Shown here piece by piece: positions 296 to 61,554 of a stretch of DNA of 64,000 nucleotides. The stretch comes from Candidatus Aminicenantes bacterium (GTDB lineage Bacteria; Acidobacteriota; Aminicenantia; Aminicenantales; JAFGAV01). The notes under the pieces are model-generated. The model was not told the origin of the DNA and ran no database searches. It saw only the letters and a list, made by a program, of their open reading frames with translations. How positions within the stretch are numbered: the stretch's first letter is position 1; each line of letters begins with the position of its first letter. Where the stretch lies: positions 1,838,626 to 1,902,625 of the forward strand of contig OY969762.1 of assembly GCA_963702835.1 (NCBI GenBank), written 5' to 3'. A program made the translations under genes and the position numbers.

Positions 296-1078
296 TCACC
301 AAGTCTTCCATGGCGGCTTCCCGCTTTCCCATAGCGATTCTAAGTATTTTAAATCTCTTAGAGTATCCATACACTGCCAAAATCCCTCGTGTTGATAGGC
401 GAATAATTGGCCATCAACGGCAAGACGTTCCATGGGCGCATGTTCCCACATAACGTCCGCCTTGATATAATTGAGTGCTTCAGGTTCGACAACGAAAAAG
501 CCGCCGTTAATCCAGCCTTCGTGCAAAGTGGATTTTTCCTTGAAATGACGGATGCGATTGCCCTCGAATTCCAGCGCGCCAAAACGAGCTGGCGGTCGAA
601 CGGCGGTAAGAGTGACCAAGCCTCTTTGTGAGCGATGAAAAGACAAGAGCTTGTCCAAGGCGACATCGCCCAGGCCATCGCCGTAAGTCAACATAAAAGT
701 TCTTTTGCCGATCAGATGTTCCAATTTTTTCAGCCGCCCGCCAGTCAAAGTGTCCGCGCCAGTATCTACAAGATGTACGCGCCAGCGTTCCATGCTATTG
801 TGCTTGAGTGTCTGAACCTGCCCATCTTCTAGCGACACGGTGAAATCCCGGCTGAGCGTGTGAAATTCAAGAAAGTAGCGCTTGATTTGTTCACCTTTGT
901 ATCCCAGCGCCAGAATAAACTCTTTGAAACCGTAGTGGCAATAGTGCTTCATGATATGCCAGAGAATGGGCTGTCCGCCGATTTCGACCATGGGCTTAGG
1001 CTTGAACTCGGTTTCCTCACGCAGTCGCGTCCCTATGCCCCCGCATAAAATCACGACAGGAATGTTCTGTTCAGTCAT
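296..1078 (-). CDS. rfbF: glucose-1-phosphate cytidylyltransferase (CDP-glucose pyrophosphorylase)
   Basis: The 260-aa product has the N-terminal nucleotidyltransferase motif [38 protein letters not shown], typical of RfbF/DdhA. Its length matches. Confidence 0.9.
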
Positions 1079-1211
1079 TCTTCACCTTCTGCTCATGGTC
1101 ATCGTTGGTCGCGTGAAAATACTGCTCATGCCACTGAATAGTGGCCTGAAGCGCGGTTTCCAGCGTAAATGACGGCGGCCAATTCAACATCTCTTTCGCC
1201 TTACAACTTGG

Positions 1212-1949
1212 CTATTCCCATGCGTCAATTTTGATTGCCCCTGCGCCTATGCCCATGCTGCGCAGATCTTGCGAGATGACTTGCAGCATGGAAGGTGGCC
1301 CGGAGATGTAATAAGTGGCTTCCCTAGGGCGCCGGATTTTGGGCCACATGGCAGCCACCGACAAACGTCCGATGCTATCAAGTCCGTCAGATTCCTTCAT
1401 CGCCGGGCGAGTCTTAGTGTCTTGCTCGACAAAATAGGACAAATGCAGCGAAGGCACGGTTTGGACGCGCTGCTGAACCAGTTCACGATAGATCAACAAA
1501 CCCTTGGTTCGAGCGCCATACGCCAGGTAAACTGCGTGTCGAGAGTCAGGCGTCAGTCCTTCCAGAAAAGCAGTGAAAGCCGTAATCCCTGTACCTCCGG
1601 CGAATAGGACGACATCTCCGGTATTGTTCACCACAAATTCGCCGTAGGGCATCTTGACCCAAACCTGGCCGCCTTCGGCAAGTTCTTTTTCCATTCGCGC
1701 CGTAAATCGGCCGCGCACCGAATAGGAAATGCGCAGTCGATCCCTTTGCAAAGGCGAGTTAGCGATTGAAAACACGCGCGACTCAGGCCAGAAACCACTA
1801 GGGTCATAATCGTCGAGCGCCAGATGCAAGAATTGCCCGGGGCGAAACCTTGGAGCTAGCCGCTCTGGCCGCAAGGTCACAGTATACACGTGATCGCCGT
1901 GGTTGATAATTTGCTCGACTCTACACGGCAGTTTCTGTGCTACAGCCAT
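1212..1949 (-). CDS. FNR-like FAD/NAD(P)-binding oxidoreductase; candidate CDP-6-deoxy-delta-3,4-glucoseen reductase (DdhD/AscD-like) that lacks the N-terminal [2Fe-2S] ferredoxin domain
   Basis: It has the FNR-family motifs RPGQFLHL, RxYS (RISYSVRG) and GGTGITAF. The ORF track extends to 2021 with a TTG start. The ATG at 1947-1949 (MAVAQKLP...) is preferred. No CxxxxCxxC ferredoxin motif is present. It lies between rfbH and rfbF. Confidence 0.6.
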   Translation of the reverse strand: MAVAQKLPCRVEQIINHGDHVYTVTLRPERLAPRFRPGQFLHLALDDYDPSGFWPESRVFSIANSPLQRDRLRISYSVRGRFTARMEKELAEGGQVWVKMPYGEFVVNNTGDVVLFAGGTGITAFTAFLEGLTPDSRHAVYLAYGARTKGLLIYRELVQQRVQTVPSLHLSYFVEQDTKTRPAMKESDGLDSIGRLSVAAMWPKIRRPREATYYISGPPSMLQVISQDLRSMGIGAGAIKIDAWE

Positions 1950-2032
1950 GCGTTCATCACAAACGGAATTTGTCTTCCATCTATCACGTACGTTGCCCGT
2001 GCATGAACCTGGCAAAGACAAGGATCGGCATT

Positions 2033-3304
2033 TTATGCTCTTTTAAAGAACTCTTCGAACACTTCTAAGATATAATCAATCTGCGCTTTCCCGATTCCCG
2101 GAAAGAGGCCGATGAAAAAGGTATTGTTCATGATCAGATCCGTATTCTTCAAGTCGCCAAATTGTCGTTTCTTGATGCCCAGGAAAGCCGGCTGCCTGAT
2201 CAAGTTGCCGCAGAAAAGGTTCCTCGTTTCTATGCCGTTTTGCTCCAGGAAAGATGTCAATTTATTCCGAGAGAATCCTGCGTCCTCTTTGACCGTAAGC
2301 AAAAAACCGAACCAGGACGGGTCACTGTGAGGGGTTGCTTCGGGCAGGATTATTTTATTCTGATAAGGAATCAGGCCACTGTAAAGGCGGTCAAAATTCT
2401 CCTTTCTTCTCCGGACAAACCATTCGAGCTTATCCAGCTGGGCTACCCCAATTGAAGCCTGCATATCGGTCATTTTCAGATTATAACCGATATGGGAGTA
2501 GACATATTTATGGTCGTATCCCGGAGGGAGTGTGCCAAATTGCTGGGAGAATCGTTTCCCGCAAGTGTTGCTTTCTCCCGGATTGCAGTAGCAGTCTCTT
2601 CCCCAATCGCGAAATGACCTGGCGATCCTGGCCAATTCCTCATCATTGGTGACGACACAACCCCCTTCACCTGTCGTGATGTGATGAGCAGGATAGAAGG
2701 AAACGGTAGAGAGATGTCCGAAAGTCCCGGTCAGCCTCTCACGGTATTTGCTTCCCAGCGAATCACAATTATCTTCGATGAGCCAGAGATCATGCTTTTT
2801 TACTAGCTCTAAAACGGCATCGACGTCGAACGGATTTCCTAAAGTGTGAGCCAGGAAAATCGCCCTTGTTTTTGGGCCTATGGCCTCTTTCAATTGCCCA
2901 GGAATGGCATCATAAGTCCCTAGGTTGATATCAACGAAAACAGGGATCAAATTATTTTGGACTATTGGAGCAACAGTTGATGGGAAACCCGCCGCTACTG
3001 TAACGATTTCATCGCCCGGCTTGAGCCGCCGATCTCCGAGCTTGGGAGAGGTCAGTGTACTTAGAGCCACGAGGTTCGCCGATGAGCCGGAATTGACCAG
3101 AATGGCATCTGAAACATCGAAGTATTGAGCGAATTTCGACTCGAACTCTTCTGCGTATCTTCCCGATGTCAGCCAAAAGTCAAGGGAGGAATCAACCAGG
3201 TTTATGATCTCTTTTTCATCGAAGACGCGGCCCGCATAGCGGACCGGCGTCTTTCCTGGAATAAATGATTTTCCCTGATACTTTTGCTTATAAAGCTTTT
3301 CCAC
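2033..3304 (-). CDS. rfbH: CDP-4-keto-6-deoxy-D-glucose-3-dehydrase (E1; PLP/PMP-dependent, DegT/DnrJ/EryC1 fold)
   Basis: The 423-aa product has a DegT-family aminotransferase fold and a Cys cluster (DCYCNPGESNTCGKRF) consistent with the E1 iron-sulfur site. It has a GTG start and overlaps rfbG by 17 nt. Confidence 0.8.
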   Translation of the reverse strand: MEKLYKQKYQGKSFIPGKTPVRYAGRVFDEKEIINLVDSSLDFWLTSGRYAEEFESKFAQYFDVSDAILVNSGSSANLVALSTLTSPKLGDRRLKPGDEIVTVAAGFPSTVAPIVQNNLIPVFVDINLGTYDAIPGQLKEAIGPKTRAIFLAHTLGNPFDVDAVLELVKKHDLWLIEDNCDSLGSKYRERLTGTFGHLSTVSFYPAHHITTGEGGCVVTNDEELARIARSFRDWGRDCYCNPGESNTCGKRFSQQFGTLPPGYDHKYVYSHIGYNLKMTDMQASIGVAQLDKLEWFVRRRKENFDRLYSGLIPYQNKIILPEATPHSDPSWFGFLLTVKEDAGFSRNKLTSFLEQNGIETRNLFCGNLIRQPAFLGIKKRQFGDLKNTDLIMNNTFFIGLFPGIGKAQIDYILEVFEEFFKRA

Positions 3305-4445
3305 TAAAGCAAATATCTCTTGCCGGTATCTTCTTTTCTTCTTCTGTCATCGGATTTACATCTTTTTCATGTATTCTTGGTATCTGATTATTACAGAGCT
3401 CCAGTATATTCTCGTTGGAATGAGCGGCCTTATACCATATGATCGTGTTGAATACGGCCTCCTCGATCTCCAGACAGGGTTTCCAGCCAAGCTCGAAATG
3501 GGCCTTATGGGTATCTAAAGATAAAAGGCCGGCTTCGTGCGGCTTGCTTTTTTCCCTTGTATGCAGCCATTTTCCCTCACCCCAGTGACGGATAGCCAGT
3601 TCGACCAGTTTCTGGACAGAAATAACAGATGATGTCTCAGGACCGAAATTCCATGCCCCGCTGTACTTTTGAGGCGCAGTTGCCATATAAGCTCCCAGGA
3701 GTAGATAACCTCCGAGAGGCTCTAGCACGTATTGCCAGGGTCTTATCGCCTGAGGGTTTCGGATTTCGATGGTTTTTTTCTTTTCCAGAGCGCGTATGCA
3801 ATCTGGGATTATTCTGTCCTTTGCCCAGTCTCCGCCGCCGATGACATTTCCGGCTCTAACCGAGGAAAGCGATTTGCCGTGAGACCGGCAATTCTCAGGA
3901 TTAAAGAAGGAATTCCGCCAGGCCGCTGTTATGATCTCAGAGCAAGCTTTCCTCGAGCTATAGGGATCGTATCCTCCTAGCGGGTCCGTCTCCCGATATC
4001 CCCATATCCATTCTTTGTTCTCATAGCATTTGTCGCTCGTCACATTGATGATGACCCTGACCGACTTGGAGGCTCTGCAACTCTCAAGGACGTTGACCGT
4101 ACCACCGATATTGACGTCGTAGGTCTCTTTGGGATTTTTATAGCCTTCCCTGACCAGAGGCTGCGCAGCCAAATGGAAGACAAATTCGGGCGAATATTCC
4201 TTAAAGACTTTTTGGAGTTTGCGGTAATCGCGGATTTCTCCCCTTATGTCGATCATCGAGCGTGAGAGATGAGATAGAACGAAATTGTCCTTATGAGTAT
4301 AGGGATCAAGCGCATAGCCTATGACTTCGGCTCCCAGCTCTTTTAACCAGAGAGACAGCCAGGACCCTTTGAAGCCCGTGTGCCCAGTAATCAGAACACG
4401 CTTGTTTTTATAGCACTTTCTCAGGATAGTTGCGGCTTTGCTCAT
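3288..4445 (-). CDS. rfbG: CDP-glucose 4,6-dehydratase
   Basis: The motif KRVLITGHTGFKGSWLSLWLKELGAEV is typical of RfbG/DdhB (SDR family). The ORF track extends to ATG 4490. The internal ATG at 4445 (MSKAATILRKCYKNKRV...) gives an N-terminal length like known RfbG. Either start is possible. Confidence 0.8.
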   Translation of the reverse strand: MSKAATILRKCYKNKRVLITGHTGFKGSWLSLWLKELGAEVIGYALDPYTHKDNFVLSHLSRSMIDIRGEIRDYRKLQKVFKEYSPEFVFHLAAQPLVREGYKNPKETYDVNIGGTVNVLESCRASKSVRVIINVTSDKCYENKEWIWGYRETDPLGGYDPYSSRKACSEIITAAWRNSFFNPENCRSHGKSLSSVRAGNVIGGGDWAKDRIIPDCIRALEKKKTIEIRNPQAIRPWQYVLEPLGGYLLLGAYMATAPQKYSGAWNFGPETSSVISVQKLVELAIRHWGEGKWLHTREKSKPHEAGLLSLDTHKAHFELGWKPCLEIEEAVFNTIIWYKAAHSNENILELCNNQIPRIHEKDVNPMTEEEKKIPARDICFSGKAL

Positions 4446-4471
4446 TTTATTGCCGGATTCTCCAACGAGAG

Positions 4472-4990
4472 TCATTGAAAGGCGTTCCATTCCAATTTTT
4501 TATCCCGGACGGCCTTGATTCCCCGCCCTGGGCATTTGAGGCCGAGAGCCTCTATGTCGGAATCCATCATGGTCCAGACAAGTTCCTTGAAAGATATCTT
4601 GGGAGTCCAATTCAAGGCATCCCTTGCCTTCCGGAAATCCGCCCTCAGTTCCTCCGCTTCGGTCGGAGGAAAATAGTTAGAATCAATTTCAACATGCTGT
4701 CGCCAATCCAATTGGACATAGCCGAATGCTTCTTCCAAAAAATCCCGGACGGAATTCATATTTCCAGAGCCGGCGACATGGTCACCCGCGCGTTCCTGCT
4801 GAAGCATCAACCACATGGCTTCGATATATTCAGGAGCATAGCCCCAGTCTCTTTTGGCATCCAAATTTCCGAGATAAATCTTCTTTTTCTTTCCGGCCAT
4901 TACCCCGGCGATACCGATGGTGATTTTCCGGGTAACAAAGGATTCTCCCCTTCGGGGTGATTCATGGTTGAAGATGAGCGCTTTTTTCAT
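4472..4990 (-). pseudogene. gmd: GDP-mannose 4,6-dehydratase 3' fragment (C-terminal ~170 aa only; the Rossmann N-terminal half is absent)
   Basis: ALIFNHESPRRGESFVTRKIT...YLGNLDAKRDWGYAPEYIEAMWLMLQQE matches the GMD C-terminal half. The first ATG is at 4988-4990. Upstream there is only a 36-nt AT-rich spacer before the wzz stop, so the N-terminal ~180 aa are missing. Confidence 0.7.
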
Positions 4991-5026
4991 CAAATTGATA
5001 AGGCAATATCAATAATTCTTATTTTT

Positions 5027-6140
5027 CTACTTTTTTGTTACTTCTGATTTTTTATTATTGCCGGCTTTTTGTTTTTCTATATATTCGATGAAAAAGGCGA
5101 GCATCGTGAACATAAACAAACCCAGCCCTCCTGCTATGGCTACGTTGATTTTCTTCCTCGGCGAAACCGGATAAAGCGAGACCATCGGTTCTTTCACCAT
5201 CTGGGTGTAGTCGATGCGCTGCTTCTTTTCGTTCAGCAGTTCGATGTCGCTCCGGAAGCCGATGATCTCCTGGTTGATCTTTTCGATCTGCGTCTTCAGT
5301 ATCTTTAATCTCCTGCTCCTTTTCACGCATGGAAAGCCGGAGGTTTTCCTGGGTTATTTTTTCTGCGCTCAGGTTCTCTTCCAGGGTATTGTAGTAACGG
5401 AAGTTCTGCTGGACCTCGTTGGAGTAAAGGAGAAGGCCCAGGGCTTCCACATTGCCCTGCTTCTCGGCCAGAATCGTTTTCTGTTGCTTTTCGATCTCGT
5501 CGATCCGCGTCTTGACGCCCTTCATCTCCTCGACAAGGCTGCGCGAGCGCTCTTCCGAGATCTTCAATTTGTTGCCGGCGGCGATGATTTCCTGCTGGGT
5601 TTTATCGATCTCGATGTTCTTGGACTGGATATCAAGGGTCTTTGTTTTGATGTCATTTTCTTTAGCCGCGACCTGAGTTGTGATGCTTTTGATCTCGACG
5701 TCGATCTTCCGGTCGAGTTCGCCCTTGAGGTGCTGAAAGAGCGAGTTGAGAATCGCCTGCGCTTTCTCCGTTTCTCCGGTCCGGATGCTCACCCGCACGA
5801 GTTTGGTGTCGCGCAGATTTTCCGCCTTTAACTTAGGGAATTTCCTCGGGTCAAGATTCAGTTCGGCGCTGATCAGGCGATTGTAGGATTCCTGATTGAT
5901 CTGGCCCGCGATTTGTTTGGGATCCATGACCACGACTTCGCTGAAAGCTCCCTGCTCTGTCTGGACGAAGAACTTGCTCGGCTGGATGATGGCATCCACT
6001 TCCCATTTGGGCGGGATAAGGAAGCTGACGATGCCGGCGATCAGAGCCAGGAGGATGGTGGGAATCACGATGAGCCACCGGCGCTTCCAGAGGACGTTGA
6101 GGTAGTCGCTTAGCTTAACTTCGGGTTCATATTCGACCAT
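5027..6140 (-). CDS. wzz: polysaccharide chain-length determinant (Wzz/PCP family); apparent frameshift near 5300-5345
   Basis: The N-terminal TM and LNVLWKRRWLIVIP motif and the coiled-coil body are in frame 5326-6146. The natural C-terminus (coiled coil, second TM, PVSPRKKINVAIAGGLGLF) is in a different frame at 5027-5326. The 363-aa ORF tail after the junction is non-native. The preferred start is ATG 6140, preceded by GAGGTG. Confidence 0.75.
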
Positions 6141-6229
6141 ATACACCTCATCGAATCGGGGTTGGCATTTGAAATAATTTTACCGAAAATCCGACCCGCG
6201 GGTCAAGGGCCATCGCGCAGGCGGCCGGC

Positions 6230-7872: not shown

Positions 7873-8386
7873 GGCTCTTTTCTTCCCGGCCTTCCGCCGA
7901 TCCCCAGGCGGTAGTAGACCTCCGGGCGCCTGTCTTCAAGAAAGTGCTTACGGGCATGGCAGTCCCGCTTCTTGCGGAAATCGCACTCCGCGCAAAGGAT
8001 TTGGTCCAGGCCCGCCGGCACTCTCGCGATCATTCTTCCGTCCGGAGCGACGATAAACATAAGAATTTGCTTTTCGGCAAGGATGGCCGATCGCGTGTCT
8101 TCGTAGCGATTTTGCCGCCCCCTGCTTATGAGAGATGATAAATCATGGCGAAAAGGGGTGTCAAGCCTCCGAACGAGGCCTTCCCATTCAACCTTGACTT
8201 TCCTCTTAAACTAATAAATCATATATCTTAGAAGATATGGGAAATTCATTAGGGTATCAACATTCATCCATCGAGAACCGATAAGTCTAGTCCTTATCTA
8301 GCTGCCGGATAAGAAGGCCTGAATAGAAACCCTGCGCGGCGGGTAGGCCTCCGGCAGAGAGGGGTTGGTCATGAAAAGCGCGATTC

Positions 8387-52634: not shown

Positions 52635-53761
52635 TGAAGAAGATTTTCCACATCATCCGCAAGGAGTTCATCCAGGTGCGCCGGGACCCCAAGCTCTTCC
52701 CCATCCTCCTCTTAGCGCCCATCCTGCAGCTCCTTCTTCTGGGCTACGCCGTGAACCTCGACACCAAGGACATCCCCGGCGTCGTCTGTGACCTGGACGG
52801 GACGCCGGCCAGCCGGGAGTTCATTTCCCGATTCTTCCACTCCGGCTACTTCAGCCTCAAGGAGCGGGTGGCCGCGGCGGAGGATGTCGGGCGATTCCTG
52901 GACAACGGCCGGGCCTCGATAGCCTTTGTCGTGCCGCGCGGTTTTGGAAATCATCTAGCGGCGGGCCGGACGGCCAGCGTCCAGGTTCTGCTGGACGGGA
53001 CGGAAAGCCAGTCGGCCACGGTCGGAGCGGGCTATGTTTCCCTGATCACCTCCCGCTATGCCCAGGAGAAATCCGGCCGAATCCTGGAAGGGCTCAGGGC
53101 CGCCGGGATAAAGCCCGTCCAGGTTGACCCTGAGATCCGGGTCTGGTACAACCCCGAGCTCAAAAGCCGCAACTTCATGGTCCCCGGCGTGCTGGGGCTC
53201 ATCCTGCTGGTCATGACCATGATGCTGACGTCCATGGCCGTGGTTCGGGAGAAAGAGATGGGAACCATGGAGCAGCTCAGCGTGACCCCCATCCGGCCGC
53301 TGGAGCTCATCGCCGGAAAGCTCCTCCCCTTCCTGATCATCGGGATCGTGGACGTCCTGCTGGTCACCGGTGTGTCGGTCTGGCTGTTCAAGGTTCCCAT
53401 CCGGGGGAGCGTCTGGCTCCTTTTCGGGCTGAGTCTTATCTTTATGATGTCCACCCTCGGGCTGGGGCTTTTCACCTCGACCATCTCCCACAACCAGCAG
53501 CAAGCCATGCTGATGACCGTCTTGTTCATGATGCCCATGATTTTTTTCTCGGGGTTTGTATTTCCCATTGACAACATGCCCAAGGTCATCCAGTGGTTTA
53601 CCTATCTCATGCCGCTGCGCTACTACTGCGTCATCATCCGCGGCATCTATCTCAAGGGCGTGGGCCTGGCCGAGCTGTGGGGACAAGCGCTGGCCCTGCT
53701 GGTGTTCGGCCTGACCATTCTGGCCCTGAGCGTGCTGCGCTTCAGCAAGAAAGTCGGCTAG
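52634..53761 (+). CDS. ABC-2 type transporter permease
   Basis: It is a paralog of 51462-52634, sharing WYNPEL and REKE.GTMEQL motifs. It overlaps the upstream stop (TGATG). Confidence 0.8.
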   Translation: MKKIFHIIRKEFIQVRRDPKLFPILLLAPILQLLLLGYAVNLDTKDIPGVVCDLDGTPASREFISRFFHSGYFSLKERVAAAEDVGRFLDNGRASIAFVVPRGFGNHLAAGRTASVQVLLDGTESQSATVGAGYVSLITSRYAQEKSGRILEGLRAAGIKPVQVDPEIRVWYNPELKSRNFMVPGVLGLILLVMTMMLTSMAVVREKEMGTMEQLSVTPIRPLELIAGKLLPFLIIGIVDVLLVTGVSVWLFKVPIRGSVWLLFGLSLIFMMSTLGLGLFTSTISHNQQQAMLMTVLFMMPMIFFSGFVFPIDNMPKVIQWFTYLMPLRYYCVIIRGIYLKGVGLAELWGQALALLVFGLTILALSVLRFSKKVG

Positions 53762-54048
53762 CCCGCCGAAATCGGCTTTTTTTCTTCCTCAATCCGAAAA
53801 ATAACCTTGGCCAGCGGGTCGGGGCACTGAAATTCCCGGGTGATATTTAGAATGTCGTTATCCGGGTCGGTGGGAATGCCGGCCGCGATGATGGGTTGAA
53901 GGATGCTGCCCAGGGCAAACAGGCAGACTCCGGTTCCCGGAGGGATTTCCAGTCGCGCATTGCGCACATAAAAATAATCCCCCTCTGTGGACCGGCTGCA
54001 GGGCCCTTCAACTTTGACGATGGTGACCTTGAAGTTTTTTAGTTTCAT
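53758..54048 (-). CDS. small TIGR04076-like protein of unknown function
   Basis: The 96-aa product has the Cys pattern GPCSRS...PPGTGVCLFALGSILQPIIAAG...QCPDP. This resembles the TIGR04076 family layout (C..C.PG.C...CPDP). Confidence 0.45.
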   Translation of the reverse strand: MKLKNFKVTIVKVEGPCSRSTEGDYFYVRNARLEIPPGTGVCLFALGSILQPIIAAGIPTDPDNDILNITREFQCPDPLAKVIFRIEEEKKPISAG

Positions 54049-54278
54049 CGTTGTTTTTGACCTCCTGAGCCGAAACGCCTGAACGCTGCTATTTTTTCAG
54101 ATTTCGGAGTCGGCCGGCAAGAGCCAATTTTCCCTGCCAATTGCTTCGCCATGCTTTCCGGCAATTTTATAGTACAATTGGGCGGAATGGCTCCCGTGCG
54201 AATGGTCAATCGGATAAAATAAGCTTATCGGATGCGGACCTCGAATATGCTTCCACAAGGTTGCCGAGGGGATTTTTC

Positions 54279-55754
54279 ATGAGGCGTAAACTGCTTGCCT
54301 TTCTTGTTTTGTCAGCGGTTTTGACCCCCTTCTTGGGAGCAGGCCTGGAGGAAGCCTGGCAGATCTATTTCGCCCAGGCCGATCAAGCCCTCCTGTCCTC
54401 CAAATACCAGGAAGCCATTGGATATTACCTTAAGGGGATTTTCTTCGCTCCGCCCAGCGAGATCCCCAAAACTTGGGACGATCTGGGCTATGCCTATCTG
54501 CAGATGCGCTCTCTGAAAGATGCGGTCGAATATTGTCAGAGGGCCCTGGCCTGGCATCCGGACAACTATGACCTCCACCTCTATCTTGCTCTGGCCTATT
54601 TGCTTTCCGATGACCTGAAACGGACCGACCAAGAATTGAAATGCATCGAACAGAAAATCTATTTCACGGAGGGTTGGGTTGAAAAAGCCCTGGGCTTCAA
54701 GCCCAAAAACAAACAGGGGGAGGAGGTTTCCAGGGAACAACTGGAACGGCTCAAGAAAGAAAAAGGGATAGGTCTCTTCCCGGACACCTCTTCCTCCGTG
54801 ACCGTGAACTTGGATGCCTTCGATGAGAGGAATGAGGGAGTCTTCTATTTTATACGGGGGCTGGTCGACGCACAAACGGGGGATCGGAAGCAGGCCCAGG
54901 AGATGTTCCGGGCCGCCGTCGAGGCCGGCTATGATCCGGAGGCCGTCCGCCTCGGACAAACACATCCTCCACGAGAGATTCCCCTCAGAATTTTTCACAG
55001 GATCTGGGAACATAACAACAGATTGGCTTTGACCTTACACGAGAAATTCGTGAAACAGGTCGAGGGCGGCCACATCGAGAAGGCGATCCAGACGCTCCAG
55101 GAAGCCTTGGAAGTCTACGAGCAATCCTTTGAACTCAATTACAATTTGGCCATACTCTCCTACGATGTCCACAACCTGGACCAGGCTGAAATCTCCTGCG
55201 CCCGCGCCTTATGGTTTAAGGAGAGCGATCCCGCCGCCCATGAGTTGATGGGGAATATCTATTTCAACCATAAGGCCTATGATCGGGCTCTCCTGGAATT
55301 CAGACGGGTGATTGAAATCGACGAGCGCAACGCCGCCGGCCATTTCAACCTGGGCTCGGCCTATTACCAGCTCGGCGATTCGGTCCTGGCCGAGACTCAC
55401 TGGAAAAAGGCGGTGGCCTGCGACCCGGCCGGCATGAACGAGGACAAGGCTCAACCGGGCGCTGAATTGCACTATTCGTCCCTTGTCAAAAAGACTCCCA
55501 TCGCCCATAAAGCCCATCTCGCTCTGGGGAATTTATATTCCGAACGGGGCCGCCCGGAAATGGCCATAACGGAATTCGAGGCCTCCGCCCGGCTCAAACC
55601 CGAAGACCCGGAGCCGTATTGGCATCTCGGGAAGCTTTATCTGGAACAAAAGGAAACGGATAAAGCACTGGCCTGTTTAAAGAAATATCTCTATTTGGGC
55701 GGACAGAATGAACACGAGGCCAACCAACTCTTGGACTCAATAAAAAAGAAATAG
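54279..55754 (+). CDS. TPR-repeat protein with signal peptide
   Basis: Multiple 34-aa TPR motifs (W-LG-Y, A-F-P patterns) are present. The start at ATG 54279 (MRRKLLAFLVLSAV...) is preferred over the ORF-track 54141. Confidence 0.7.
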   Translation: MRRKLLAFLVLSAVLTPFLGAGLEEAWQIYFAQADQALLSSKYQEAIGYYLKGIFFAPPSEIPKTWDDLGYAYLQMRSLKDAVEYCQRALAWHPDNYDLHLYLALAYLLSDDLKRTDQELKCIEQKIYFTEGWVEKALGFKPKNKQGEEVSREQLERLKKEKGIGLFPDTSSSVTVNLDAFDERNEGVFYFIRGLVDAQTGDRKQAQEMFRAAVEAGYDPEAVRLGQTHPPREIPLRIFHRIWEHNNRLALTLHEKFVKQVEGGHIEKAIQTLQEALEVYEQSFELNYNLAILSYDVHNLDQAEISCARALWFKESDPAAHELMGNIYFNHKAYDRALLEFRRVIEIDERNAAGHFNLGSAYYQLGDSVLAETHWKKAVACDPAGMNEDKAQPGAELHYSSLVKKTPIAHKAHLALGNLYSERGRPEMAITEFEASARLKPEDPEPYWHLGKLYLEQKETDKALACLKKYLYLGGQNEHEANQLLDSIKKK

Positions 55755-55946
55755 ACAGTCGGGCGCTCGATCCGGCCAAGCCCGTCATTCGGCGGATCGC
55801 CCTGAAGCTGAAATACATCCCTCTTACTTGACTTCCACGACCGGCAACAGGACGTGCGAGGGAAACTCGGCCGTGTGGTAAATCCTTTGCGCGGCCTTGC
55901 AGAATTTCGTCTCCTTCTCGTTGTGCCCGCCCGTGTTCAAGGAAAT

Positions 55947-56018
55947 AAGGTGACAGTTATCCAAATACCCTAATTATCAAGACGTAATTTCAGTAATTAG
56001 ATGACTGTCACGTTTATT
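55947..56018. repeat. palindromic ~72-nt intergenic repeat, copy 1 of 3 (MITE/REP-like)
   Basis: The sequence is aaggtgacagttatccaaataccctaattatcaagacgtaatttcagtaattagatgactgtcacgtttattc. The inverted arms are ggtgacagttatccaaatacc and ggtaattagatgactgtcacc. Confidence 0.8.
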
Positions 56019-56200
56019 CACATCGTGCCGAGCGGCCATTCCACACGCCGCGAAAAAAGTAAACTCCTATCCCTCAAGAAACCCTAAGAGCGGGGTCGCG
56101 GCGTAGCGCCTATTGACAGGCGTCTGATTCAGGCCTAAGCTTTTTACGAACTCAGCGCAATGTCTTCAGGGATGGGAAACATATCTGGAAGGAGGAAAGG

Positions 56201-56749
56201 ATGACGAGGAAGGTCCTAATCATGACTTTAACGGCCGGCCTTGCCTTAGGGGGGATTATCGTGGCCGCTCAGATCAAGACGACGTCTTCGCCGCCCGATT
56301 CACAGCTTCTAGCGCCGACGGACCCGAATTTGCCGGACCTCATCGTTGAAGAGATCAGGTTCACCATCGAGTCCTCAGGAAGCGGCGGCACGAACGTGCG
56401 GATCTGGTACACGATCGGCAATCAGTCCGATTTCCTCTCGAGATGCTGCCCCACCGAAGAAGGAAAAAAAGCTTGGAAGAATAATCCCGTCGAGAATTGC
56501 CTGTTCCACGTCTCCTTGGAGGAAAGGGACTACCCGAGCGGTAGATACCACTGCATCGCCAGCAGTTCGACGGAGTTGACGCCTCACCAGAATCAGACTT
56601 TCAACCAGTTGGTTGTCGTTCCCTCCGGAAAGCAGAGACAGTACAGGGTCAAGGTCGATCCCGAGAATTGGATCAGAGAGAAAAATGACGCCAATAATGA
56701 AAAAGAGGCCCGCTGGCCTATTCCAGCGCTCCAACCGCCCATTAAATAA
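56201..56749 (+). CDS. secreted protein with CARDB-like β-sandwich features, unknown function
   Basis: It has a signal peptide and PDLIVEEI...VRIWYTIGNQ (CARDB-like). A GGAGGAAAGG SD precedes it. It is flanked by repeat copies 1 and 2. Confidence 0.45.
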   Translation: MTRKVLIMTLTAGLALGGIIVAAQIKTTSSPPDSQLLAPTDPNLPDLIVEEIRFTIESSGSGGTNVRIWYTIGNQSDFLSRCCPTEEGKKAWKNNPVENCLFHVSLEERDYPSGRYHCIASSSTELTPHQNQTFNQLVVVPSGKQRQYRVKVDPENWIREKNDANNEKEARWPIPALQPPIK

Positions 56750-56755
56750 GGAAAC

Positions 56756-56828
56756 AAGGTGACAGTTATCCAAATACCTTAATTATTAAGACGTAAATTC
56801 GGTAATTAGATGACTGTCACCTTTATTC
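56756..56828. repeat. palindromic ~72-nt intergenic repeat, copy 2 of 3
   Basis: The sequence is aaggtgacagttatccaaataccttaattattaagacgtaaattcggtaattagatgactgtcacctttattc. Confidence 0.8.
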
Positions 56829-56914
56829 CAGCGGACGAGTTCACCTGCTTAATCGAGCAGACTTTATCGCTTATTAATATAATATCTAAGAATATTTAAG
56901 GGAGGGTGGCCGAA

Positions 56915-57298
56915 ATGCCAAAGAACGCGGCCTGTATCAAGCTTCTTCTCTGGGTCGGGATTGCCATATTCCTGCTTTGGTTTCTAGCCTTTTCCATCGC
57001 GCCCGAACGCCTGCTCCCCGCTCTGGGTCTCTCCGAAAATCATGGTTTCATCCCACGTTTGTATGGAATCTTCCAGTTGAGTTGGGCCATGTTATTCTTT
57101 TTCGCGTTGAAAGACATCGAAAAGAATATCGCCATCATCAACGGCGCCATAATCACCGGAGCCCTGACGGTTATTTTTCTCGTGGCTTACCACATCGCAA
57201 AAATCAAAACAGGCTGGTTCCTCTTGGCAAGCGCGGCCGTTCTGCTCATCTATACCGCGCTGCTTTATATTTGTAAGCCAAAAGCCACGCGGCCGTAA
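56915..57298 (+). CDS. small integral membrane protein (4 TM), unknown function
   Basis: ATG 56915 follows the AAGGGAGGG SD. The ORF track starts at GTG 56906. Four hydrophobic helices are predicted. Confidence 0.5.
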   Translation: MPKNAACIKLLLWVGIAIFLLWFLAFSIAPERLLPALGLSENHGFIPRLYGIFQLSWAMLFFFALKDIEKNIAIINGAIITGALTVIFLVAYHIAKIKTGWFLLASAAVLLIYTALLYICKPKATRP

Positions 57299-57354
57299 AT
57301 CAGCCGGCGACTCTACAGGGGTTTGCTTTTCGGCCTCGCCTAAAAGGTGAAATA

Positions 57355-57426
57355 AGATGACAGTTATCCAAATACCCTAATTATCGAGACGCAATTTCGG
57401 TAATTAGATGACTGTCACCTTTATTC
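57355..57426. repeat. palindromic ~72-nt intergenic repeat, copy 3 of 3
   Basis: The sequence is aagatgacagttatccaaataccctaattatcgagacgcaatttcggtaattagatgactgtcacctttattc. Confidence 0.8.
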
Positions 57427-57436
57427 CACTCTAGAG

Positions 57437-59439
57437 TTACTTCTTCAAGAATCGATCAAACCAGTCAACCGTCCGCTGGATCCGATCGATCTGGTGGTTC
57501 GGCTCTTGGAAGCCGTGCGGCTCGCGCGGATAGCGGACCATTTCCGTCTCGATGCCGTTCTTCTTCAGAGCCATGTACATCTGCTCGCCCTGCTCGATCG
57601 GAACTCGGCGATCCGCCTCGCCGTGCAAAATAAGCGTCGGGGCCTTGGCTTTCGCCACATTCGTGATGGGTGAGCTGCGACTGGTAGATCTCGACGGCTT
57701 CCCACGGTCTGCCGGTCATGTAGTAAACGGTGAAACGCTGAATATCCGTCGTTCCGAAGAAGCTGATCATGTTCGACATGCCCGCCCCGGGTACGGCCGC
57801 CTTGAATCGATCGCTGTGGGTGTTGATGAAGTTCGACATATATCCGCCATAGCTCCAGCCCTCGACTCCGAGGCGGTCCGGATCGGCGATGCCTTTGGCG
57901 ATCACGTCATCGACTCCAGTCATGATGTCCTGGAAGTCGACCACGCCCCATTTCCCGACATTGGCTTCGATATGTTTTCTTCCGTATCCGTCGCTCCCGC
58001 GGAAATTGGGCGCAAAGACGACATAGCCGCGTCCGGCCATGACCTGCCACATGCCGTTGAACCTTGTTGACTGAACGCCCGCGGGTCCGCCGTGGGGCTC
58101 GACGATCATCGGGTATTTTGTGCCGGGCTGATAATCGACCGGTTTGACGAGCAGGCCTTCAATCTCGCCGCCGTCGGGGTTCTTCCAGCGAATCACTTCG
58201 GTTGTCCCCAGCTTGAAATCATCCACCTGAGGGTTCATCTTGGTCAGCGCCTTCGCGTTCGTCCCGTCTGCGGCGGCTATCCAAACGTCCGCGGGACGCA
58301 GCGGGTCGCTGAGCGTAAAGACGAGGATTTTTCCGTCCTTCGATAGCCGTCCGGCCCCGATCACCCGCTCTCCGGAGATGAGCGGCTTGACGGGTCCGCC
58401 GTCCGCCGGGACCGAGAACAGATGCGTGTTCGTGCCCATGCCGGCCTGAAAATAAATCGTCTTGCCGTCGGGCGACCAGACAGGATTGGACTTCGTTACG
58501 GTCGAAAGCCTCCGTCAGGTTGCGCGGCTGACCGCCCGTGGACGGCATGACCAGAATATCATTCTGTCCGCCTGACTGGGGCTTCGTGCCGGCCAGGTAA
58601 GCAATGAAGCGGCCGTCGGGCGACCAGCGCGGGCTGGCATCCGGTCCCTCATTTTTCGTCAACATCACGGGCGTCCCTCCGGATGCCGGTATGACCATGA
58701 TGTCTCCAAGGACGCCGTCATCGGCTTTGGGACTGGGGCGCGTCACATAGGCGATTTGTTTTCCATCGGGCGACCACTGGGGATCGGTGGCGTCCAATCG
58801 GTCATGGGTCATCTGATTTGCCTGTCGGCCGGCGATGTCAATGACCCAGAGCTGGCTCATCTTGATATCCTTGTCCACGACGATCATGTCCCGCTTCTCT
58901 TTCATGCGTTTCTGCTCTTCGTCGCTGGCGGGCTCGGGCGAGACAAAAGCGATCCTTGCGCTGTCGGGCGACCAGCTATAGCCCCCTCCGCCAAACCCGG
59001 CTGCGGAGACGCCTCCTTTGACGTCCGTCAACTGCTGAGCCTCCCCTCCCGCGGCCGGAATGATCCAGATTTGGGATTTCGCGGCTCCATCGCCGTCCGC
59101 CGCGCGCTTCCCCTCGCGGTTGGAGATGAAGGCGATCCATTTCCCGTCTGGAGACCATTGGGGCGCGCTCTCGTTTTTTAAGCTCCAGGTGAAACGGTGC
59201 GGCTCACCGCCGGCGGCCGCAACCATCCAAAGATGAGAAAAGGACTCATTGGCTTTAAGGTCTGCCTCCGACATGACGAAGACCACCTGTCTGCCGTCAG
59301 GCGAAATCTGAGGGTTCGAGACAGCCTTGAGGGTCACGACATCCTCGGCTGTCATGACCCGCTTCTGGGCGGGTGCCGCCATCGCGAATAAGATACACAG
59401 CACCGCAATCGACAATAGAACTCTTCGCAGTCTCAACAT
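57437..59439 (-). CDS. S9-family serine peptidase (N-terminal β-propeller + prolyl-oligopeptidase α/β-hydrolase domain); two apparent frameshifts (~58490-58510 and ~57650-57675)
   Basis: There are three consecutive minus-strand ORFs. The first is a β-propeller with repeated SPDG motifs. The second is the catalytic domain with GWSYGG. The third is the C-terminus with APTLILHGEADRRVP and PREPHGF. The natural peptide continues in shifted frames at both junctions. The start ATG 59439 follows the AAGGAGG SD. Confidence 0.7.
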
Positions 59440-59603
59440 CAAAGTTTCCTCCTTAAGGGATAGTTAACATGCCAACGCGCACTTCATCTTCAAGCAATAT
59501 TCGAACGCTTGCGAATATATTATAATATTGTTGATTCTCTTGCATTAGCTAGAGAGAAATCTTTATGGAAATAAGGTGGAAATCAGGATCAATCGTATCT
59601 ATT

Positions 59604-60566
59604 TTATTGCCAAGGGCCACCCGCTGGCCACTTAAGATTAAAGGGCTTATCATCGATCAAAGCGGCGGCGAGGGGCGTAAGGAATCGACGGAGAGCTTTT
59701 ACTACCCTCTCGAGGCTCGGAGCGGATGAAGCCCGGCCGATGCGTTCTAAAAAAGCCCTCCATCGCCCCTGATTTTCGGCGCTGTTATAAAACTCCTTCG
59801 ACAAACCGAGAGGCAATGCCGCCGGCAGTTGTGTTCTTCGCGTTTTGAACGTTGCCTCCACGGCTTTAGACAAAGTACTGCCCTCAAAACCAAAATTCTG
59901 CGACATCTCAAAAAGATCAAAATAGTCCTTGAGGCGGCTGTTGATCATGCCGAAAAATACGACAGTCTGATATTTCTCCGCGACAACAGACTCTTTTGAA
60001 TAAATCTTGATTCGTGGTTTAGGCAGGCCCAAAAGAGAGGGAAACGATTGGATCGTTGGGCGCGGGATTATTTTATCGCCGAATCCGATATCAAATTGAA
60101 GCGGTGTCCGGGCTGTCCCCAGATGACCAACGACTCGGACTCTTAGCCCTCCATAAAACTGGCCTTGCCGTGTAGGTTCCGTTCTGATCGTATCAGCGTC
60201 AAATGTCATCCCATCTGTTTTAAAAGTCTGGCGGCACACGGAAGAAAAGATCGCCTCCATATGGCGGGCCTTGGGTTCTCCAAAACTTAGAAAATCCGCG
60301 TCTCGAGTAGGACGGCAAGCGGCCGGATTCCATATTTCGAAGAGAAACGCACCCTTGAGAACGAGATTCTTAGCTAACCGGTTTTGGCCCAAGCGGTAGA
60401 GAAAACGTTCAATCGCATACCTATTCAAAGTCCGTTGAAATTCTTCTTTTCTGTCACGGGAGATATTGAGCAATCTCTGCCGGATCGAAGAGGGAATGTC
60501 CGACAGGCCGGTTGTTTTCAAACCAGAGCTTCCAAATATGGCCGGATAATTTTCTCGACTCGGCAA
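59604..60566 (-). CDS. AbiEii/AbiGii-family nucleotidyltransferase toxin (type IV TA)
   Basis: LKGAFLFEIW...RPTRDADFL is the AbiEii motif. The 320-aa product is immediately downstream of, and overlapping, the abiEi-like gene. Confidence 0.75.
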   Translation of the reverse strand: MPSRENYPAIFGSSGLKTTGLSDIPSSIRQRLLNISRDRKEEFQRTLNRYAIERFLYRLGQNRLAKNLVLKGAFLFEIWNPAACRPTRDADFLSFGEPKARHMEAIFSSVCRQTFKTDGMTFDADTIRTEPTRQGQFYGGLRVRVVGHLGTARTPLQFDIGFGDKIIPRPTIQSFPSLLGLPKPRIKIYSKESVVAEKYQTVVFFGMINSRLKDYFDLFEMSQNFGFEGSTLSKAVEATFKTRRTQLPAALPLGLSKEFYNSAENQGRWRAFLERIGRASSAPSLERVVKALRRFLTPLAAALIDDKPFNLKWPAGGPWQ

Positions 60567-61123
60567 ACCTTAGCAGCACGATATAGGGCATCCGAGTTGA
60601 AACGCCTTTCCCGCCAGCCCTCGCGCAACGCTTCGAGCGCGATATCCAGACCGATTTTATTTCGAAACTTAAAGCAATCAGCCACAGTCTTGGCCGGGCT
60701 CGTTATGGATACGGGGATGGCATGAATATTATGGTGTTCCACTCCATAGAGGAGAGAGGATTTTGAGAACCTGACAATTTTAAGGCTAATACCCGTGTTT
60801 CGCGGCTTTCTGGCTTTACGGTCAATGGCCAGCCATATCTGATGAGGATTCTGAGTTCCGATTTCGTGATATCTCAAGGCCGAGAGCAAGCATATAACGC
60901 CGTGAGGCACGCGGAGGCTAATCTCCATCAACATCTGCTGTTCTGATGTGATTTTTTCCGGCAGGTAGACAATTCCTCTTCCCGTGGAAACGATCTTGTT
61001 TTTTTTCAAAAGACGGAACACGACCATAGGCGGGATTCCAAGCGCATCGATATCCCTCGACCTCATCATCGGCCTTTTTTCAAGGATCTTGAGAAGACGC
61101 TTTTCTTGGGTGATTTTTGTCAT
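60518..61123 (-). CDS. AbiEi-family antitoxin / transcriptional regulator
   Basis: The N-terminal wHTH is ITQEKRLLKILEKRPMMRSRDIDALGIPPMVVFRLLKKNKIVSTGRGIVYL, and the C-terminal domain has PHGVICLLSALRYHE. ATG 61123 is preferred. ATG 61171 is an alternative, but it lies within the inverted repeat. Confidence 0.7.
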   Translation of the reverse strand: MTKITQEKRLLKILEKRPMMRSRDIDALGIPPMVVFRLLKKNKIVSTGRGIVYLPEKITSEQQMLMEISLRVPHGVICLLSALRYHEIGTQNPHQIWLAIDRKARKPRNTGISLKIVRFSKSSLLYGVEHHNIHAIPVSITSPAKTVADCFKFRNKIGLDIALEALREGWRERRFNSDALYRAAKVCRVEKIIRPYLEALV

Positions 61124-61143
61124 ATTAATCTTTGTTAGCAATA

Positions 61144-61169
61144 GTCGGCACTTATTATTTTGTGCCGAC
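61144..61169. promoter_or_regulatory. perfect 8-bp inverted repeat (gtcggcac-N10-gtgccgac) upstream of abiEi; candidate autoregulatory operator
   Basis: It was seen directly in the sequence. AbiEi antitoxins are known to bind inverted repeats in their own promoter. Confidence 0.4.
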
Positions 61170-61478
61170 ATATTCTAACACGACCGTAGAGGGAGTCAAC
61201 TCCCGAAAGAATTGCACAATTAGGCAACTTATCTCAGGCATTTGACATTTAATAGATCGAGCCTTGAAACGGGGTGGCGTTATTTCCTTCTCGGTCATGC
61301 TGACCGACGACTGGTACAAGACGCATCACCGCAGCGACCATCCCGTATCCCCGCGCCTCTGGCTTGAATGGTTGATGGCTCAGGGCTTTGATCCTTGCGA
61401 CATGGTCTGGCGCAAGACGGTATTCGGTGTGATCAGGGCTACAAAGGCTTAGGTTTAGTTCATTCGCGGGGAGAAGAT

Positions 61479-61554
61479 TGGTAGCGCTACGGGGATTCGA
61501 ACCCCGGTCTGATGGCTGAGAACCACCTGTCCTGGGCCTCTAGACGATAGCGCC
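61479..61554 (-). tRNA. tRNA-Glu (anticodon CTC), CCA encoded
   Basis: The manual fold is: acceptor GGCGCTA/TAGCGCT (with G1-U72), D-arm CGTCTAGAGGCCCAGGAC typical of tRNA-Glu, anticodon stem GGTGG/CCATC with loop TTCTCAG (anticodon CUC), T-stem CGGGG/CCCCG with TTCGAAT, discriminator A, then CCA. Confidence 0.8.

Follow-up and report, generated by a model that had tools for sequence, protein, structure and literature searches.

A polar palindromic repeat of Aminicenantia: a possible bidirectional terminator with recombination-prone feet beside a tRNA-Glu gene

Why should near-identical palindromes occupy three successive intergenic gaps in the genome of an uncultured member of the Acidobacteriota? 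The question is raised by a 64,000-nucleotide stretch of Candidatus Aminicenantes bacterium DNA (assembly GCA_963702835.1, contig OY969762.1, positions 1,838,626–1,902,625; hereafter the window, numbered from its first letter), in which the palindromes flank a CARDB-like secreted protein gene and a small membrane protein gene with three to four transmembrane (TM) segments, referred to here as the 4-TM gene. We propose, with a probability of about 0.5, that the element is a palindromic repeat resembling REPINs or miniature inverted-repeat transposable elements (MITEs), that it has been kept as a bidirectional terminator or insulator, and that its outer ends, the feet, are recombinogenic.

The repeat is a real, non-random feature. 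It is an 80-nt imperfect palindrome present in three direct copies on the plus strand, E1 (55941–56020), E2 (56750–56829) and E3 (57348–57427), each within an intergenic gap. Repeat searches and alignment gave 90–93% identity to a reference copy over 81 nt and ~89% pairwise identity among the three, confirming the near-identical copies described in an earlier, sequence-only reading of this DNA. The 72-nt cores that it had placed at 55947, 56756 and 57355, and the hairpin arms that it had quoted, proved correct in the alignment. The palindrome is nevertheless longer, as the dyad symmetry of the core runs 6–8 nt further on each side, to GGAAATAAGG...CCTTTATTCC. The window consensus can be written GGAAATAAGG-TGACAGTTATCCAAATACC-loop-GGTAATTAGATGACTGTCA-CCTTTATTCC, with the variants AGTAATT and CACG in E1 and GATGACAG in E3. 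When the 64 kb were scanned with the 20-mer arms at up to three mismatches, matches were confined to E1–E3, against an expectation of 0.00 from shuffled sequences. As DNA, each copy folds into a long imperfect hairpin (z = -3.6 to -7.3); as RNA, the copies fold on both strands into hairpins of -26 to -45 kcal/mol (z ~ -6). Data on open reading frames (ORFs), Pfam domains and hydrophobicity bore out the placement in three gaps around the CARDB-like and 4-TM genes. The lower GC content remarked on earlier was borne out as well: G+C is 0.44–0.55 around the copies, and 0.527 from 53.7 to 61.5 kb against 0.585 in the remaining window.

The element is not peculiar to this locus. We scanned species-representative genomes and metagenome contigs with a degenerate 20-mer matching either arm. 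The former gave one exact-core match, in a single Candidatus Aminicenantales metagenome-assembled genome (L001; loci outside the window carry an L number), and the latter 16 matching stretches, some of them possibly due to chance. Profile searches and inspection brought the family to at least 15 further full copies plus truncated ones, with L018/L019 and L032 added through protein look-ups. Beyond the window, the one Aminicenantales genome and contigs of sediment metagenomes hold at least 19 copies in all; the solo 20-mer matches L004, L009, L013 and L017, possible chance matches in a large collection, were left out of the analysis. Two subfamilies can be told apart. Copies of ~80 nt with the feet AAATAAGG/CCTTTATT occur in the window, L018, L032, L005, L003/L014 and L001/L016, and copies of ~60 nt with the feet AAATTGG/CCAATTT in L011, L010/L015, L012, L002 and L008. 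All full copies lie between ORFs. At unrelated loci the copies have common feet (GAAATAAGG ... CCTTTATTC) and flanks without homology beyond them; the copies of L005, L018, L032 and the window, for example, have the same feet in unrelated surroundings. Because the feet are shared at unrelated loci and nothing is shared beyond them, the element is a discrete repeated unit. The L032 copy differs by 2–4 bases from each of E1, E2 and E3, which gives a star-like relation, and by its sequence it looks like a master copy.

No direct repeat was found at the feet in 17 of the 18 copies. Target-site duplications (TSDs) had been proposed as a check, and their absence from these copies led us to reject a classical MITE. 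An autonomous element with the same termini was likewise not seen in viral contigs, plasmids or the loci. The sequence-only reading had suggested a MITE or a REP-like (repetitive extragenic palindromic) element. The second half of that suggestion is supported, in view of the discrete unit, the unrelated intergenic loci and the REPIN-type anatomy; the first half is not. The exception among the 18 copies is L008, where a 24-nt direct repeat (GGCAACCTTGTGAGAGGGATCTCG) at 1873–1896 and 2038–2061, the only long flanking duplication in the family, encloses a 141-nt segment made up of the element and ~90 nt including a start codon. Two further candidates were discarded. Viral contigs and plasmids held no match to the element, and an origin from either was rejected; a described RNA family was rejected on Rfam searches, which at gathering thresholds returned only three tRNAs in the window and in E-value mode a meaningless miRNA match (E = 0.67). 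The best explanation of the dispersed copies appears to be a family of low-copy, polar palindromic repeats of ~60–80 bp, similar to REPINs or to TSD-less MITEs and confined to Aminicenantia-type genomes.

In an alignment of 17 copies, the stem base GGTGACAG/CTGTCACC is invariant in every copy. The arms are equal in length, have 1–3 mismatches and no bulges, and enclose a loop of variable length (9–18 nt). Compensatory changes occur in the outer stem and in the loop-proximal stem, with six pairs altered on both sides; 79.6% of the cells in the alignment are paired, against 32–46% when the partner column is slid. Every copy combines one conserved A arm (GTGACAGTCATCTAATTACC) with one variant B arm (...ATC[C/T]AA[A/T]T[A/T]CC), which makes the element polar and causes its two strands to fold into differently mismatched hairpins. 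This polarity is uniform within clusters: all three window copies have the same orientation (in E1, B arm left and A arm right), and the five L011 copies, of which three are full and two single-arm, also agree in orientation even though the L011 genes lie on both strands. Each window copy also contains a sigma-70-like motif, GTGACA-16 nt-AATTAT, running from the B arm into the loop (55950–55977, 56759–56786 and 57357–57384); it is not kept in the shorter (~60 nt) subfamily.

The retained copies are under constraint. The orthologous elements of L001 and L016 are 95% identical, against 87–91% for their flanks, and those of L010 and L015 are 91% identical, against 81%. Since they are better conserved than the adjacent coding DNA, the retained copies must do something that depends on their sequence. 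The 12-nt tails beyond the stem contain 45% T on both strands, compared with a background of 22%. About 11 of the 18 full copies lie no more than 60 nt from a stop codon or the 3' end of a tRNA. E3 and the copies in L001/L016, L007 and L005 are located between convergent genes, and in L018, L003 and L014 the element follows tRNA-Glu or a 3' fragment of it by 12–55 nt. In the window, the first base of E2 follows directly on the stop codon of the CARDB-like gene, while E3 stands 48 nt past the 4-TM gene and 9 nt from the stop codon of a convergent S9 peptidase gene. According to Pfam, the neighbours of the copies are ordinary, unrelated genes. An all-against-all comparison of the ORFs near the copies yielded no recurring neighbour protein, only the synteny of close relatives; kinship between the CARDB-like protein of the window and the protein beside the L007 copy was rejected, as only a short motif is common to both. 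Given that their hairpin is stable, that their tails are rich in T on either strand, that they are placed behind stop codons and behind tRNA-Glu, and that they are under purifying selection, the retained copies are most plausibly bidirectional transcription stops or insulators between independently promoted genes. Termination, one of the roles suggested earlier, is thus most likely the day-to-day function, although simple local terminators alone are not enough, given the copies found elsewhere and the variation among strains.

Much of this evidence would also suit a plainer account, according to which the copies are functional hairpins only (bidirectional terminators, RNA-stability or regulatory stem-loops), are not mobile, and have spread by duplication or co-transfer of neighbouring DNA. 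The stability and T-rich tails on both strands, the many copies right after stop codons, between convergent genes or just downstream of tRNA-Glu, the purifying selection at orthologous sites, the lack of TSDs and the low copy number are all consistent with it. Ordinary terminators, however, would not be expected to agree fully in a 20-nt core and in their feet when they lie at unrelated loci and in organisms whose flanking proteins are 77–87% identical. The flanks share no homology beyond the feet, so that the spread is not accounted for by co-duplication of neighbours, and this reading also sits poorly with the star-like descent from a master sequence and with the copies in 5' or divergent positions. 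We regard this account as unlikely, if still a serious contender.

To see what happens at the feet, the window can be compared with closely related strains. The protein with tetratricopeptide repeats (TPR) encoded beside E1 is 100% identical in L018/L019, where the order is ABC2, a small ORF, the TPR gene, a gene-X remnant, one element, 16 nt, a 51-nt 3' fragment of tRNA-Glu and a tyrosine integrase gene. L018/L019 are without E1, the CARDB gene, E2, the 4-TM gene, the S9 gene and the AbiE genes, so the strain-to-strain variation that had been proposed as a check does exist. Their single element is 96% identical to E3, of which it is the positional counterpart. Gene X is intact in L021 (93% nucleotide identity) and L022, where it lies convergent after the TPR gene. 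In the window only its 3' remnant is left (55824–55940, minus strand), cut at the left foot of E1, where homology to L021 ends; 115 nt are retained, against 73 nt in L018, where the gene is cut 42 nt further in, at the left foot of the L018 element. A simple product of homologous recombination between E1 and E3 was rejected for L018, as the two gene X junctions are 42 nt apart and the L018 element resembles E3 in its left foot and loop. The single-copy state is best read, on these junctions, as a deletion from gene X to the left foot of E3. Because E1–E3 are ~89% alike and E3 and its L018 counterpart 96%, the array is older than the split of these strains, and a recent triplication in situ is unlikely.

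More junctions of this type are found in L014 and L003, from a relative at 92–95% identity. There the S9 and AbiE modules occur in changed order, each followed by a 53706|61514 junction (window numbering) at which the final 56 nt of ABC2 run directly into the tRNA-Glu 3' half, and the element lies downstream of the last tRNA fragment. Homology between the S9 gene and L014 breaks off at 57431, which is the right foot of E3, and a comparison of L003 with L014 shows indels at each foot of the element. In total, no fewer than six independent junctions lie 0–3 nt from a foot, with the element intact in most cases: S9/E3 in the window versus the tRNA fragment/element join in L018, gene X/E1 versus L018, S9/deletion in L014, both feet in L003 versus L014, and the right foot in L032. 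Short tandem duplications that include the outermost foot bases were seen three times, as two units each of GAAACAACCGTGA in L014 (~8232–8285), ATAACATGGTGA in the L011c copy (7972–7999) and GGGAAATA in L032 (~463–490); two of them end at GTGA|CAG in the invariant core. Nicking or slippage at the base of the hairpin may have left these duplications behind.

Where did the genes between the copies come from? The first inter-copy segment (56084–56749, plus strand) comprises the CARDB-like gene (56201–56749) and its own promoter region. The product of the gene, 182 aa long, has a hydrophobic segment at its N-terminus and matches Pfam CARDB (E = 1.2e-6). The entire segment is 92% identical to the element-free locus L031, and this homology stops on the stop codon, at 56749, exactly where E2 begins. 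Judged by this boundary, E2 may be a simple TSD-less insertion. In L031, a 163-nt direct repeat (2712–2874 and 3499–3661, 92% identical) that is unrelated to the element lies 3' of the CARDB-like gene. The second segment (56854–57345, plus strand) contains the 4-TM gene (56915–57298), its promoter region and a downstream spacer; the protein, of 127/130 aa, has three to four hydrophobic segments. Homologues with 87–93% nucleotide identity occur in L023 (a 4.3-Mb genome), L025 and L033, in a native context of fn3, 4-TM gene and tyrS that is free of the element. The homology covers 56854–57309, takes in the 4-TM gene's own promoter and extends, more weakly, as far as the foot of E3. In L032, the 4-TM gene is followed by the same spacer and an element, from whose right foot on the DNA is unrelated. 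From the element-free homologues, we infer that both inter-copy genes are copied in from elsewhere.

Arrays of this form call to mind gene cassettes, and the sequence-only reading had indeed offered cassette recombination as one explanation. The element would then be the dedicated recombination site of an unrecognised attC-like system, in which a recombinase acts on a folded polar hairpin and, by inserting or excising gene-plus-element modules, assembles co-oriented arrays. Two independent arrays, in the window and in L011, have a single polarity, with single small genes reading from B arm to A arm, and the gene content between copies differs between near-identical strains. The module of 4-TM gene, spacer and element is found both in the window and in the different context of L032. 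Strand choice would be possible with a conserved, asymmetric hairpin, junctions lie exactly at feet, and a tyrosine recombinase gene is located ~90 nt from the single L018 copy. The details of the site speak against it. Integron attC sites have an RYYYAAC/GTTRRRY core with the triplet AAC/GTT, extrahelical bases and an unpaired central spacer (PMC5027507). In our element no AAC/GTT triplet is conserved on either strand, the base being GGTGACAG/CTGTCACC in all copies, and extrahelical bases and an unpaired central spacer are absent. An integron integrase was not found in 53–62 kb of the window; with 77.9 bits, the L018 enzyme stays below the 265-bit cut-off of TIGR02249, and it adjoins an ordinary 51-nt tRNA-Glu attachment fragment, and no recombinase recurs near other copies. 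An integron attC site was rejected on these tests of core, bulges and integrase. Furthermore, both genes have retained promoter regions of their own and are represented by homologues at element-free loci, most members of the family are single copies between housekeeping genes and stable at orthologous sites, and the junction between the CARDB and 4-TM segments seems to lie ~20 nt to the right of E2, not at its foot. Of the earlier suggestion, then, the strain-variable content between copies stands and the attC features do not, and we consider a dedicated cassette site improbable. A bolder and slightly more doubtful version would have the element as the folded-strand site of a non-integron gene-capture system in Aminicenantia, which would join gene segments into polar arrays beside a tRNA site. 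Its foot cut might be GTGA|CAG, as two independent short duplications end there.

Finally, the element could be bound as a DNA duplex, through the dyads TGACNGTCA and TAATTA of each arm, by a dimeric protein, for example a regulator or nucleoid-organising factor, and this is very unlikely: the arms are conserved beyond the needs of a stem and both have dyad-symmetric motifs, the copies are few and conserved across species, and some are promoter-proximal or, in the window, contain the promoter-like motif, but the arm spacing varies with the 9–18-nt loop, unlike a fixed protein–DNA geometry, compensatory changes keep the pairing where the sequence is not conserved, the neighbouring genes have no common function, and foot breakpoints and array formation would be left unexplained.

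We therefore return to a mobile palindromic repeat that was retained as a terminator or insulator. The family would have spread by insertion of master-sequence copies, mobilised in trans by a putative enzyme that recognises the hairpin foot. In the window, the retained copies, as bidirectional stops or insulators, would separate the tRNA-Glu side, the CARDB and 4-TM genes and the convergent S9 gene from one another. The feet would be recombinogenic, through cleavage by the enzyme or through fragility of the hairpin, and because of this the tract beside the tRNA-Glu integration site would gain and lose gene segments. The E1–CARDB–E2–4-TM–E3 array would represent one such state, and single-copy L018 a deletion derivative ending at the left foot of E3. 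Foot-specific cleavage would explain adjacent deletions that spare the element, with plain hairpin fragility as the alternative (review PMC7999016).

Several observations weigh against this interpretation. Some concern mobility and copy number. A REP-associated tyrosine transposase (RAYT) or other transposase was found neither among the window ORFs tested nor in the loci of relatives, and tblastn with an IS200 TnpA query, a weak test, returned nothing below E = 0.2 from the window and loci sequences. REPIN and MITE families usually number tens to hundreds of copies; here, one exact-core match was obtained in one species-representative genome, the 64-kb window has no copy apart from the cluster, and none was found in ~70 kb of other loci from relatives. 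The arms do not behave as small REP-type hairpins, as their only dyads are TGACNGTCA, which has a one-base centre and cannot fold, and TAATTA. The sole comparison of a filled with an empty site, between E2 and L031, is weakened by the low similarity of the two sequences beyond E2 (p ~0.04–0.11). Others concern the role in termination. A scan with a simple terminator consensus did not call the element, whose stem is long and AT-rich. The copies in L011a/b, L008 and L010/L015 lie 12–36 nt upstream of start codons or between divergent genes, where an efficient terminator would be awkward.

The surroundings of the array have an island-like character of their own. A tRNA-Glu(CTC) gene is located at 61479–61554 on the minus strand, and its 3' part is the attachment site of integrative islands. 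The 7.8-kb low-GC tract from the 3' end of ABC2 to the 3' half of this tRNA gene (53706–61514) behaves, as far as its sequence goes, like an integrative island. The 53706|61514 join (56 nt of ABC2 plus a 36-nt tRNA-Glu 3' half) is what a circular form would carry. It was found once or twice in the relatives (L014 5836–6014 and 7771–8231; L003 4951–5139), where S9 and AbiE form separate tandem units; a second tRNA-Glu fragment was not found in the window. In L018 (3763–5281) and L019, the 51-nt tRNA-Glu 3' fragment has compensatory changes in the T-stem and is followed by the gene for a 481-aa tyrosine integrase with HTH_17, SAM-like and Phage_integrase domains and an Xer-like catalytic domain, which stays below all NCBIfam cut-offs. 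This region is a different island at the same tRNA.

Within the tract, the S9 prolyl-oligopeptidase-family gene (57437–59493, minus strand) is split over three frames, with shifts near 58492–58544 and 57639–57667, whereas its counterpart in L014 is intact (675 aa). The split gene is either a pseudogene or the result of indel errors in a long-read assembly. Directly downstream of tRNA-Glu lies an AbiEi-like/AbiEii pair (59604–61171, minus strand; a nucleotidyltransferase toxin of a type IV toxin–antitoxin system), which is replaced in L003 by a methyltransferase-like ORF. Between the AbiE and S9 modules, 48 window-specific bases include a 12-nt exact match to the left foot of E1 (GGAAATAAGGTG, 59567–59578, plus strand) in the same orientation as E1–E3; with an E-value of 0.66 it is not significant alone, and it may be the remnant of a fourth copy or a chance match. 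At the other end of the tract, a 96-aa ORF (53758–54048, minus strand) that is convergent with ABC2 matches NCBIfam TIGR04076 (E = 3e-13) and accompanies the ABC2 3' fragment in the L014/L003 junctions. Far from the array, the block at 296–6146 has a low third-position G+C and encodes an NTP transferase, a DegT aminotransferase, an epimerase/dehydratase and Wzz, all sugar-nucleotide or polysaccharide genes; the block probably represents a variable cluster for surface polysaccharides.

Much is known about small palindromic repeats in Proteobacteria, but from uncultured phyla such as Aminicenantia they are essentially undescribed. The present family is unusual in its low copy number, its strong sequence conservation across species and the strict polarity of each copy. 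Rearrangement junctions coincide with its feet in several strains of one population, so that the family is a marker, and may be a cause, of frequent gene gain and loss at a hot spot beside a tRNA integration site. Should a foot-recognising enzyme exist, nature would offer here a compact example of genome rearrangement directed by a hairpin; should it not, the element is still a useful marker for strain typing and for terminator annotation in metagenome-derived genomes.

How does the family compare with known systems? The Correia elements of Neisseria, ERIC and BOX/RUP are MITE-like palindromes of ~80–150 bp that double as terminators or RNA elements. Like them, the Aminicenantia element is an imperfect palindrome in intergenic DNA, both 5' and 3' of genes, and co-transcription, promoter-like motifs or terminator activity are common themes. 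Correia elements, in contrast, have TA duplications and hundreds of copies, while ours is without TSD, is low in copy number and has a conserved asymmetry between its A and B arms. Deletions of adjacent DNA with one endpoint exactly at the terminus of a transposable element are a recognised phenomenon. Palindromes classically cleaved by SbcCD are longer than the present 80 bp with a loop of 9–18 nt. Even so, several independent junctions at 0–3 nt from a foot, with the element intact, resemble both such deletions and the fragility described for palindromes and hairpins (review PMC7999016).

With attC sites and with clusters of attC sites lacking an integron integrase (CALIN; PMC5027507), the family has in common palindromes of similar length, single-strand folding, strand asymmetry, direct copies ~0.6–0.8 kb apart, one small co-oriented ORF per unit and a strain-variable gene content. 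It departs from them in that its cassettes keep their own promoters and most of its members are solitary between core genes.

The closest likeness is to the REPINs of Pseudomonas fluorescens SBW25, which are mobilised by RAYT and have been described as two conserved inverted blocks around a variable spacer, with compensatory changes (PMC3116915). Both have conserved inverted blocks of 16–20 nt, a less conserved spacer and a long hairpin; both are strictly extragenic, lack TSDs, occasionally cluster locally and persist at orthologous sites, and in both there are single-arm remnants and a relation to a master sequence. The Aminicenantia family differs in numbering units to perhaps tens of copies, against tens to hundreds for REPINs, in having arms that are not small REP hairpins and do not carry a GTAG-type 5' motif, and in clusters with genes between the copies, where REPIN units are tandem. 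In the literature searched, no such repeat family is described for Acidobacteriota or Aminicenantia, and the element joins, from this new lineage, an established class of palindromic repeats.

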